Below, piece after piece: positions 1-55,588 of a stretch of 64,000 bases of DNA. Each line of letters opens with the position of its first letter. Positions within the stretch are counted from its first letter, which is position 1. A program made the position numbers and the translations under genes. The stretch is from positions 1 through 64,000 of IMG/VR virus record IMGVR_UViG_3300032247_000581; one strand, 5' to 3'. The notes beneath the pieces are model-generated. The model saw only the letters and a list, made by a program, of their open reading frames with translations. It was not told the origin of the DNA and did no database searches. The stretch is from a virus. Lineage: Duplodnaviria; Caudoviricetes.

Positions 1-71
1 ACATCATCAAATCCCATGTGCATCTCTACTGTGGTGTCGCATAGTAAACACGTAAAATCATACTTTGGCAT
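1..71 (-). CDS. FmdB-like zinc-ribbon protein, 5' part (runs off window start)
   Basis: Not in ORF track; reads MPKYDFTCLLCDTTVEMHMGFDD, MP-Y-x-x-x-CxxC pattern; ATG overlaps stop of upstream gene. Confidence 0.65.
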   Translation of the reverse strand, partial: MPKYDFTCLLCDTTVEMHMGFDD

Positions 72-418
72 CAGTCTTTATCTCCGTATCCTGCTTCTCG
101 TAATAAGTGTACAAAGTCTTCAAGCCTGAGTAACGTAACCCACTCGCCGATGTTTGCTTCACCTTGACCATTAAGACGTAAGACCGCAACTGGTAAATCT
201 TTTCCATTGTGTCGTTCCTTTAGTTGTTTAATAGCAGCACTTGGGTTAAAACCTGTACGGGATTTTACTTCCCAGTCTATACCTATTGTTCCTGTTACAT
301 CACTACCGCTACGACCAGCGCCAGCGCTTTCTGCAAAGGGGAATCCATGTTCAGCTAAATACATGGCTAATACTTTTTGACTTCTATAGCCTCTATGTTT
401 ACGTGATTGACTTGGCAT
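71..418 (-). CDS. Hjc-like Holliday junction resolvase / PD-(D/E)XK nuclease
   Basis: N-terminal KHRG, SD...WEVK catalytic motif, C-terminal PVAVLR strand. Confidence 0.7.
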   Translation of the reverse strand: MPSQSRKHRGYRSQKVLAMYLAEHGFPFAESAGAGRSGSDVTGTIGIDWEVKSRTGFNPSAAIKQLKERHNGKDLPVAVLRLNGQGEANIGEWVTLLRLEDFVHLLREAGYGDKD

Positions 419-53770: not shown

Positions 53771-55487
53771 TTATTTTTCGTACTCTTCTGGTACACGTCG
53801 CTGAGGCAACATGGTTCCATAAGCTTCAGTTACCAACTTGTTTCTCAAGTCAGCTTCGCCCATATCTGCAGCTTGTAAAGCAGCATCAATTGTTGGCGGT
53901 AGTACTGCAGGAGCAGGTTCTCCACCCGTAGGTGCACCAGGTGCACCAGGTGTTGCTTGTCCCACCATTCCAGGAGCAGAACCCGTAAGTTCCATAATTT
54001 CCTGTTCAATTTGAGTCTGTAGCAGTTTAAGTGCGCCATCTGCTGTGGCATCGTCCATAAGTTCTTGACGGATTTCATTGAGCTTTTCAGCTGGGAATTC
54101 TTCACCAAGTACTCGTAGAGCACCTTCTTTAGATTCAAGACCAAGGGACAGTAAGGATTGAATTTCATTAAGGGCGATTAATTTATCTAACGGCAGTGGT
54201 TGTGGGAACTGTACGTAAGAACGGTAGGTAAGTGGGTCATTAGGGTCTAAACGGTCTACTTGACCCTTCTTTAATTTCACATCCGTAGTTGGGTCCCAGA
54301 TAAATGTCTCTGGTTCCTTTACTGCAAGGCTAAGCAGGATGAGTTCGTTAACTCGCTCTAAGCCGTGTGCGTATTGAATAATCTTTTGATGGTAACGGTT
54401 CATCAAAGGTTGGAACTGAATAGATAGGGCTACACCTGAGGTATTAGATATCGGTTGTGCTTGCCCTAAAGCTGTTTCTGGAACACCAATCATTTCGTGC
54501 ATAGACTTCTTGAGCATTGCTAAGAAGTCCATTGCGCCCTTTAATCCTTGAGCGCCTCCTTCAAGATTTTCGACTCTCGCATCTTTTGGTAGACCACCCC
54601 ATACTTTATTGGCGCCCTTTTCGAGTTGGGAAGCTTTCGCTCCAATGATGACTGTAACTGGCGCAGCATGATAGTTAACAATGTCGGCAATATCAGTAGC
54701 AGTCTCATTGTAAGTGCGATTGATACTAATAATGTCATTGCAATCGCTGAGCCCCCAAGGGCTACCGCTAATACGAACATTCGGAATATGAATAACAGGG
54801 ATAACGCCAAGTGGATTAGGGCGCGAGTCAATAAGTTCATCATTGATATATTCCTCAATCATGTCATCCGTCAAAATTTCTGTGTAAGTAAACACTTGAC
54901 GGGTACCTTCTAATGATGTGCCCCAGAAACGATACTTAAGCTTAAAACGAATCAAGCGCTCGCGGTCATGGGGGTGAAACTCTGGAAATGCAAAAGACGA
55001 GTTCAGGGGAAGGATACGAACTCGTCCAGGATGCGTTCTACCAGCTGTGTCTTTGTAACCTTCTTCATAAGCAACTTTAATAAAGCAGTCGCCTGATACT
55101 CCGCCTTGTTGACCAATCTCCCACAGTACTGTGGCTTTATTGTTATCTACTTCCCATACTCGCTCTAGCAAGTCAGGAACAATAGCTTCCGTTTCTTTCG
55201 GGGAACGGAAGGAGACCCCTTTACCAAAAGTAAAATTAAGTACAAAGTCAGTAAAGGCGCGGAAATAATTAATTGCCATCTGTGTTTCGCCAACTTGACG
55301 GCGGTAAGAATAATGATGGCCTAGGTACATTGCCCAGTTAAGGGAGTAACGGTTTAAGCGTGGTCCGTGGACCTCACTATTCGAATTCCTCGTCAGCTAA
55401 TTCAACTAGTCCGAGTGGACTAATGGAAATTGTTAAATCGCTGCTAGCGGCGCGGTATGACGGCGGGCTAAAATCTATGGAACTCAT
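53771..55487 (-). CDS. portal protein (SPP1 gp6-like), interrupted by 7 extra nt at 55373-55379
   Basis: Main ORF 53771..55330 (NPLG.IPV.H.PN, WG.SD, SGVAL); 36-codon 5' ORF 55377..55487 with AGGAGGTGAT RBS joins in frame if 7 nt are skipped. Confidence 0.88.
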
Positions 55488-55588
55488 GGCATCACCTCCT
55501 CTCCGTCGTGAACAGGAAGAACCTGGGGAGTACGTAATGCTCGTACATCTTTAGCAAAAGTTGTGCGCTTGTTAAATATTACTGACAC
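55484..55588 (-). CDS. 34-aa upstream ORF coupled to portal start
   Basis: GGAGG RBS, GTG start, MSVIFNKRTTFAKDVRALRTPQVLPVHDGEEVMP, ATGA overlap. Confidence 0.5.
   Translation of the reverse strand: MSVIFNKRTTFAKDVRALRTPQVLPVHDGEEVMP

Follow-up and report, generated by a model that had tools for sequence, protein, structure and literature searches.

A short insert in the portal gene of a freshwater phage is probably hopped over in translation and most likely stems from a homing cassette

How does a tailed phage produce its portal protein when the only portal gene that it carries is broken, 36 codons after its start, by a stop codon and a change of reading frame? This question is raised by the IMG/VR virus record IMGVR_UViG_3300032247_000581 (Duplodnaviria; Caudoviricetes), of which we analysed positions 1 to 64,000 (hereafter the window). 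An earlier note on this DNA had proposed that ribosomes pass the break by a 7-nucleotide (nt) stop-hop, leaving a GAA codon in front of the stop and landing on a GAG codon beyond it. Here we argue that the 7 nt are an inherited insert in the sole portal gene of an otherwise intact genome, probably hopped over by the ribosome and most likely introduced by a homing cassette. We put the probability of this reading, which is built on sequence comparison, at roughly 0.78.

The elements of the broken gene described in the earlier note are all present on the minus strand, as are all features of the portal region given below. A Shine-Dalgarno (SD) sequence, AGGAGGTGAT (55500-55491), lies 3 nt ahead of the ATG at 55487 and is at the same time the 3' end of a former HNH open reading frame (ORF) that closes with ...E V M P, its stop overlapping the ATG. 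Portal codons 1-36 (MSS...LVELADEEFE; 55487-55380) end in the GAA (Glu, 55382-55380) that would serve as take-off codon and are followed directly by a TAG stop (55379-55377), which would stand in the A site at take-off, and by a spacer T (55376) that is T or C in relatives. Next come the putative landing codon GAG (Glu, 55375-55373), which in relatives is GAA in 9 and GAG in 3, and the rest of the portal gene, codons 37-569 with the terminal TAA (55372-53771, the TAA at 53773-53771), resuming in the +1 frame at GTC (Val) and reading GTC CAC GGA CCA.... The length of the joined protein agrees with the 569 amino acids (aa) foreseen for the product of the hop. The downstream ORF encodes an SPP1-type portal (PF05133; 80.4 bits against a cut-off of 25.5, E 1.8e-22), and the profile match reaches upstream of the ATG at 55330 if the search takes in the whole open frame. 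No SD stands before that ATG, and no ATG, GTG or TTG precedes it in the downstream frame, which is closed upstream by a TAG (55399-55397), so that any switch of frame is confined to about 20 nt. Gene callers would split or mis-start such portals, here into a 36-aa ORF and a 519-aa ORF.

The genome is a single contig of 95,920 base pairs (bp) with a GC content of 42.4%, from a freshwater phage. Its end bases 95798-95920 repeat window positions 1-123, and this overlap of about 123 bp makes the genome probably complete, either as a circular assembly or with a short terminal repeat. The ORF map of the genome shows dense packing and intact ORFs, with one portal gene only. No tRNA genes were found in the genome, leaving special decoding by a phage-encoded tRNA without support. 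A naive genome-wide screen for a codon, a stop and a synonymous codon gave 189 matches, mostly noise, and the ORF map was used instead.

What has been added to the gene can be read from relatives in which nothing has been added. The junction has no blastn match among GenBank phages, where the nearest relatives are the Streptomyces phages GiJojo, BRock, Alone3, LuckySocke and pSt2308, at about 56% aa identity. The annotated portals of GiJojo and BRock run through the junction uninterrupted (SDEEF-EMHGPRLNRY), which bears out what the earlier note had said of related portals, and alignment of the window to Streptomyces phage portals leaves a surplus of one stop, one base and one Glu codon. The junction of a Terracoccus prophage is likewise uninterrupted (ADEEFEVHGPRLNRY). 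IMG/VR supplied more than 590 related portal loci, the closest 80 of them at 84-96% aa identity, and in 79 of these 80 the junction reads GAR GAR TTY GAR GTN CAY GG (EEFEVHG), L023 alone having an insert. Two unbiased IMG/VR samples of 80 loci each comprised 153 insert-free and 7 insert-bearing loci, and the length of the EEFE/VHGPRLNRY junction is constant across the Streptomyces phages, the Terracoccus prophage and these 153 loci. Set beside them, the window carries exactly 7 extra nt, TAG-T-GAG or, equally, GAA-TAG-T.

As checks of the insert the earlier note had named raw reads and other metagenomic contigs; other contigs and a run of another study do carry it. A search with the pattern TTY GAR TRR N GAR GTN recovered 11 IMG/VR contigs from 11 different metagenomes, all reading GAA TAG Y GAR; although TRR was allowed at the stop position, the stop is TAG in all 12 sequences of the window's type. 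The flanks of these contigs differ at many synonymous sites, and those of L090 at many residues as well. The 7 nt occur also in run X7 of an unrelated, independent study, in a 151-nt record identical to 55351-55501 that extends only 25 nt beyond the junction on its shorter side; runs X5 and X20, the latter the one run labelled metatranscriptomic, have no coverage of the junction. Contigs of the run that is the probable source are identical to the window, and the metagenome scan otherwise mostly re-found the IMG/VR contigs, plus many unrelated DEEFE...HGPR matches. An insert present in 11 metagenomes with diverged flanks and in the X7 record excludes an assembly error. Furthermore, both flanks of the insert in the portal gene are under purifying selection. 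In 13 low-GC sequences with an insert, synonymous sites have diverged almost to saturation (proportion of synonymous differences, pS, 0.60 and 0.74), and the ratio of nonsynonymous to synonymous differences (pN/pS) comes to 0.14 over the 36 codons before the gap and to 0.086 over the 15 startless codons VHGPRLNRYSLNWA between the gap and ATG 55330. Since these 15 conserved codons have no start of their own, their translation must come from ribosomes that initiated at ATG 55487.

The window's insert belongs to a larger series. Variable-gap pattern scans and tblastn with the intact portal gathered 21 insert designs of 4-10 nt in about 40 contigs, distributed over six neighbouring junctions and a seventh further into the gene (each design is written here with its take-off codon first, and the length given is that of the insert). 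At the window's own junction, E36/V37, we find besides GAA TAG Y GAR (7 nt) the designs GAA T GAA (4 nt), GAA TAA TAA (6 nt, in frame), GAA TTA T GAA (7 nt), GAA TTA CC GAA (8 nt), GAG TTA GG TAG (8 nt), GAA TTA GC GAG (8 nt), GAG TAA G TAG (7 nt, in L104, followed by GTT), GAA TAG T GTA and GAA TAG T GTT (7 nt each), GAA TAG CT GAA (8 nt) and GAA TAG CCC GAA (9 nt, in frame). Close by are GAA TAG CCCC GAA at E34/F35 (10 nt), TTC TGA CTC at F35/E36 (6 nt) and GTT TAG C GTA at V37/H38 (7 nt). Junction Y52/L53 holds TAT TAG G TAC (7 nt), TAT TAG TT TAC (8 nt), TAT TAA C and TAT TGA C (4 nt each), and G54/H55 holds GGT TGA ATA GGT (9 nt). The seventh junction, near residue 175, has the Arg to Arg design CGA TTA C CGC (7 nt) in the high-GC contigs L097 (about 6424) and L098 (about 12596). 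Two hops within 20 codons of one portal mRNA would be needed in several relatives among L160, L163, L168, L104, L111, L112 and L167, for example GAA TAG CCCC GAA and then GGT TGA ATA GGT.

Frame offsets of +1, +2 and 0 are all represented among these designs, and in every one of them a slow codon stands directly 3' of the take-off codon, either a stop or, in contigs of 64-67% GC, TTA. At the window's own junction TTA replaces the stop in the high-GC contigs L094, L097, L098 and L100, and this division between low-GC and high-GC contigs agrees with the published finding that UUA and UAA are interchangeable as triggers (PMC10732093). Take-off and landing codons are synonymous in 13 of the 21 designs, whereas in 6 (landing on TAA, TAG, TAG, CTC, AAC and GAC) they agree at codon positions 2 and 3 only; in the other 2 a Val codon occupies the landing position. 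A hop to the codon just before GTN would restore EEFEVHG in every design at E36/V37. In L104 and L098 the target frame has a stop immediately ahead of the codon at which reading resumes, so that a simple frameshift cannot work there. The hop from GAA to GAG proposed in the earlier note thus gains support from inserts of 4, 6, 7, 8 and 9 nt at the same junction, with matched Glu codons in most, and from matched Tyr, Gly, Val and Arg codons at other junctions. One kind of event, detachment of the peptidyl-tRNA from the take-off codon and renewed pairing a few bases further on, would explain every design and is the only reading that we find to fit the whole series.

In the window, a ribosome that started at ATG 55487 would arrive at GAA with TAG in the A site. 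Slow termination would allow the peptidyl-tRNA(Glu), in a fraction of the ribosomes, to release GAA; the mRNA would slide by 7 nt, the tRNA would re-pair with GAG, and decoding would resume at GTC. The product would be a continuous portal of 569 aa reading ...ADEEFE-VHGPR..., as in the insert-free relatives, with a tryptic peptide ending in ...ELADEEFEVHGPR.

As to where the inserts come from, they travel with an HNH homing endonuclease. Most insert-bearing contigs have an HNH-motif ORF of 209-226 aa (Pfam PF01844, E 1e-9 to 1e-12) that lies next to the portal gene, ends in ...EVMP and has a stop overlapping the portal ATG; HNH ORFs of this kind are those of L088 (6136-6768), L096 (3112-3753, minus strand) and L104 (10202-10882, minus strand). 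Of the 7 insert-bearing loci in the two unbiased samples, 4 have a full HNH gene directly at the portal ATG, as against 0 of the 153 intact loci; the remaining 3 insert-bearing loci hold HNH relics, the window being a relic case, and the full gene is present also in most of the insert-bearers recovered by pattern search. The HNH ORF supplies the GGAGGTGATGCC-ATG start of the portal gene, and GGAGGTGATGCCATG is common to insert-bearing contigs and absent from insert-free ones, whose portal starts at GGGAGGG-N6-GTG. The cassette thereby swaps the native GTG start (L003:2875-2891) for a perfect SD and an ATG (window 55485-55500). This linkage points to a selfish-element origin of the inserts, and nothing supports the functions that the earlier note had considered, namely limiting the copy number of the portal or releasing a 36-aa peptide.

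The window retains traces of such a cassette. An ORF of 47 codons at 55627-55484 is debris by its composition: it has kept the start context of the ancestral portal, GGGAGGGAAGTgcGTG (55601-55586), to which are joined some 37 nt of filler and a stretch of about 65 nt from the 3' end of an HNH gene of the L104 type (about 55567-55490). In tblastn, residues 194-221 of the L104 HNH protein match 55567-55490 of the window at 54% identity; a Pfam search of the 47-codon ORF gave no match. The insert allele is also mosaic relative to the portal body. A tree of the portal body places the window beside the insert-free L003-L006 and L072, and the body is 96% identical at the aa level to that of insert-free L003, whereas window codons 1-36 with the insert share 87-93% identity with other insert-bearers and the segment just upstream of the portal is unrelated to L003. 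With regard to the nucleases, contigs with inserts at Y52 or G54 carry an L104-type HNH gene (only a remnant in L160, L163 and L168), and an L088/L096-type HNH gene accompanies inserts at E36/V37. A second, free-standing HNH gene of 354 codons lies outside the window (contig 72491-73555, plus strand); across 55 aa its HNH motif shares 39% identity with the HNH protein linked to the L088 portal.

The cassette would accordingly comprise an HNH gene fused to the portal start, cassette-borne portal codons 1-36 and the small insert. The insert would disrupt the target of the nuclease in the portal gene while leaving the protein unchanged, as in T4 mobA/gene 60, and by this analogy the portal inserts are probably marks of immunity. 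In the window the nuclease gene would since have been deleted and the hop site left as an orphan.

Several local features might assist a hop. The SD-like GAGGA to which the earlier note drew attention is present (55391-55387), its GAGG ending 5 nt before the take-off codon, and is a candidate stimulator. It occurs in 10 of 11 unique insert-bearing and 3 of 40 insert-free sequences, and a GAG at the same codon occurs in 18 of 20 insert-bearing and 10 of 100 insert-free ones, neither pair of counts being phylogenetically independent; the motif may be a stimulator but could equally hitch-hike with the cassette. A candidate weak 5' stem-loop, TTGAATT[11 nt]AATTCGA (55405-55381), has a 3' arm whose last two bases are bases 1 and 2 of the take-off codon. 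Its predicted stability of -4.4 kcal/mol is not significant (z -1.55), and its enrichment (all 7 pairs possible in 9 of 11 insert-bearing and 11 of 40 insert-free unique sequences, uncorrected for shared ancestry) is suggestive only. The small hairpin that the earlier note saw at the landing site, GGTC-CACG-GACC (55373-55362), does exist in the window but is peculiar to it, the relatives reading GAAGTTCACGGCCCTCG and similar. A long-range CGAGG/CCUCG helix around the gap could form in 14 of 20 unique sequences with an insert and in 2 of 100 intact ones, and was not relied on because it is broken in the window itself (CCA).

Could the frame be restored in a simpler way? A +1 frameshift at GAA-TAG-T without any hop, in which a Ser-tRNA would read AGT in the manner of Ty3 and the portal would gain two residues (...EEFE-S-E-VHG...), seems to us improbable. 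It would account for the base after TAG, which is always T or C, so that the +1 codon in sequences of the window's type is always AGY (Ser), and GAA TAG T GTA and GAA TAG T GTT would also give Ser-Val in the +1 frame. A candidate site of the prfB kind, GGAG TAT CCC TGA C, exists besides in another gene of the same genome, outside the window (contig about 92,640-92,700, minus strand): a 51-codon ORF there ends ...GCG GAG TAT CCC TGA C, the +1 frame runs on for about 137 codons, the first 76 without a start codon, the SD-like GGAG lies 3 nt before CCC, and CCC can re-pair on CCU. The prfB-type +1 frameshift uses CUU UGA C with an SD 3 nt upstream. The portal site resembles it in having a stop in the A site, an SD-like element upstream and a net change of +1, but its GAGG lies 5 nt upstream and not 3, its P-site codon cannot re-pair in the +1 frame (tRNA(Glu) moving from GAA to AAU would make one pair at most), and relatives need shifts of +2 or 0. 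A +1 shift can decode neither the 8-nt designs nor the 6- and 9-nt in-frame designs with stops, nor L104 and L098, where a target-frame TAG stands immediately before GTN. It would lengthen a junction that never varies in length in more than 150 relatives, and it has no need of the duplicated Glu codon, which is yet the commonest feature of the series.

That the gene is dead, the genome defective or the assembly wrong, or that the portal is made in two pieces (the 36-aa peptide and a protein from ATG 55330), is very unlikely. The genome is indeed a metagenome assembly without an isolate, and the relative L103 has an additional 1-nt frame change, but the same insert is found in 11 other assemblies from 11 metagenomes and in the run of another study, the genome is otherwise intact with its single portal gene, and despite saturated synonymous divergence both flanks are conserved as protein, including the 15 startless codons. 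A start at 55330, besides lacking an SD, would lose HGPRLNRY, which is invariant out to the Streptomyces phages. Least credible of all is removal of the 7 nt from the RNA before translation, as a tiny intron or by editing. The inserts, 4-10 nt long, share no sequence or structure, and the pattern of a stop or TTA next to the take-off codon, with a landing site that matches in codon, is a signature of translation and not of splicing; we know of no splicing system that removes pieces of 4-10 nt.

A number of points also weigh against the hop and its origin in a homing cassette. The target site of the nuclease and the immunity role are argued purely by analogy with T4 MobA, and the enrichment of GAGGA may equally reflect hitch-hiking or linkage within the cassette. 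Hairpins predicted around the inserts have little stability (z about -1.6 or worse) and differ between members, and no stimulatory signal common to all designs was found, the other junctions having neither GAGGA nor the 5' stem. The designs GAA TAG T GTA and GAA TAG T GTT fit a +1 shift reading AGT (Ser) at least equally well. L103, which has GAA TAA TAA, has its 1-nt frame change in a T run (CGT TTT GTA, L103:5010-5025), which may be a homopolymer sequencing error, a -1 slip site or the sign of a defective genome, so that some contigs may be erroneous or defective. Finally, the efficiency of the hop might be low. The portal is needed at 12 copies per virion only, and this, with the exchange of GTG for ATG and a perfect SD, which may raise initiation, would compensate for a low-yield hop.

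Natural bypassing has been documented experimentally in T4 gene 60 and its homologues and in yeast mitochondria. In the published work that we found there is no paper on hops in portal genes, only UUA-led terminase hops and T4 gene 60 being described. In the T4 MobA/gene 60 system a genome with the element is shielded against the nuclease by the bypass insert, and there are genomes in which the nuclease is gone while the bypass persists (bioRxiv 10.1101/2022.08.31.505936). The portal system has the same arrangement: the ORF begins directly beside an HNH gene and is interrupted about 36-46 codons in, the N-terminal segment that comes with the element is unlike the native one, the element is absent from close relatives, and in some genomes the nuclease is lost and the insert kept. 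The take-off and landing codons, GAA and GAG, are moreover read by the same tRNA and a slow codon comes next, as in gene 60. It differs from gene 60 in its gap of 7 nt (4-10 nt in relatives) instead of 50, in the lack of homology to the gene 60 cassette or nascent-peptide signal, in its target, a portal and not a topoisomerase, which is not split into two ORFs, in its many designs at several junctions, and in its hosts, probably Actinomycetota and not Gammaproteobacteria.

A closer parallel in the size of the gap is the large terminase of Streptomyces phage phiHau3 and two prophages, for which short bypassing led by UUA has been proposed; in E. coli the bypass product still formed after UUA had been exchanged for UAA, as a junction peptide confirmed (PMC10732093). 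There too an essential packaging gene is interrupted, by inserts of 7-10 nt that are headed by a slow codon and have flanks that are adjacent in insert-free relatives, and an SD-like element and an upstream stem-loop were proposed (PMC10732093). The high-GC portal relatives, with TTA at the same junction, come closer to this type than does the window, where the trigger is a natural TAG stop in a phage of 42% GC in which TTA is not rare; the gene is a portal, and linkage to HNH genes is not mentioned in PMC10732093. Synthetic stop hops, of low efficiency, were made in E. coli by Weiss et al. 1987, as summarised in a 2016 review, and the same review states that natural in-frame stop hops were not known (PMC5009743). 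The portal sites have the same layout of a codon, a stop, a few nt and a synonymous codon, with re-pairing of the peptidyl-tRNA, but they are natural, conserved and in an essential gene.

We consider it fairly probable that these portal inserts are the first large natural series of stop-triggered short hops, with 21 designs, 4-10 nt long, spread over seven junctions in a single essential gene of freshwater, probably actinobacterial phages, created and propagated as HNH immunity scars and decoded without an elaborate shared signal. If so, the T4 gene 60/MobA paradigm would be generalised, re-pairing of a stalled peptidyl-tRNA nearby would be efficient enough in nature for an essential gene, and landing would often need pairing at codon positions 2 and 3 only. 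The relatives offer an allelic series in one conserved gene that spans gap lengths, frames, triggers (TAG, TGA, TAA and TTA) and perfect as well as imperfect landings, and with such a natural series reporter assays can address the rules of short-range hopping directly. The portal cassette would be a second, independent case of a homing endonuclease and a bypass insert forming one mobile unit, and it suggests a general route by which selfish nucleases may mark essential genes while leaving the protein unaltered.

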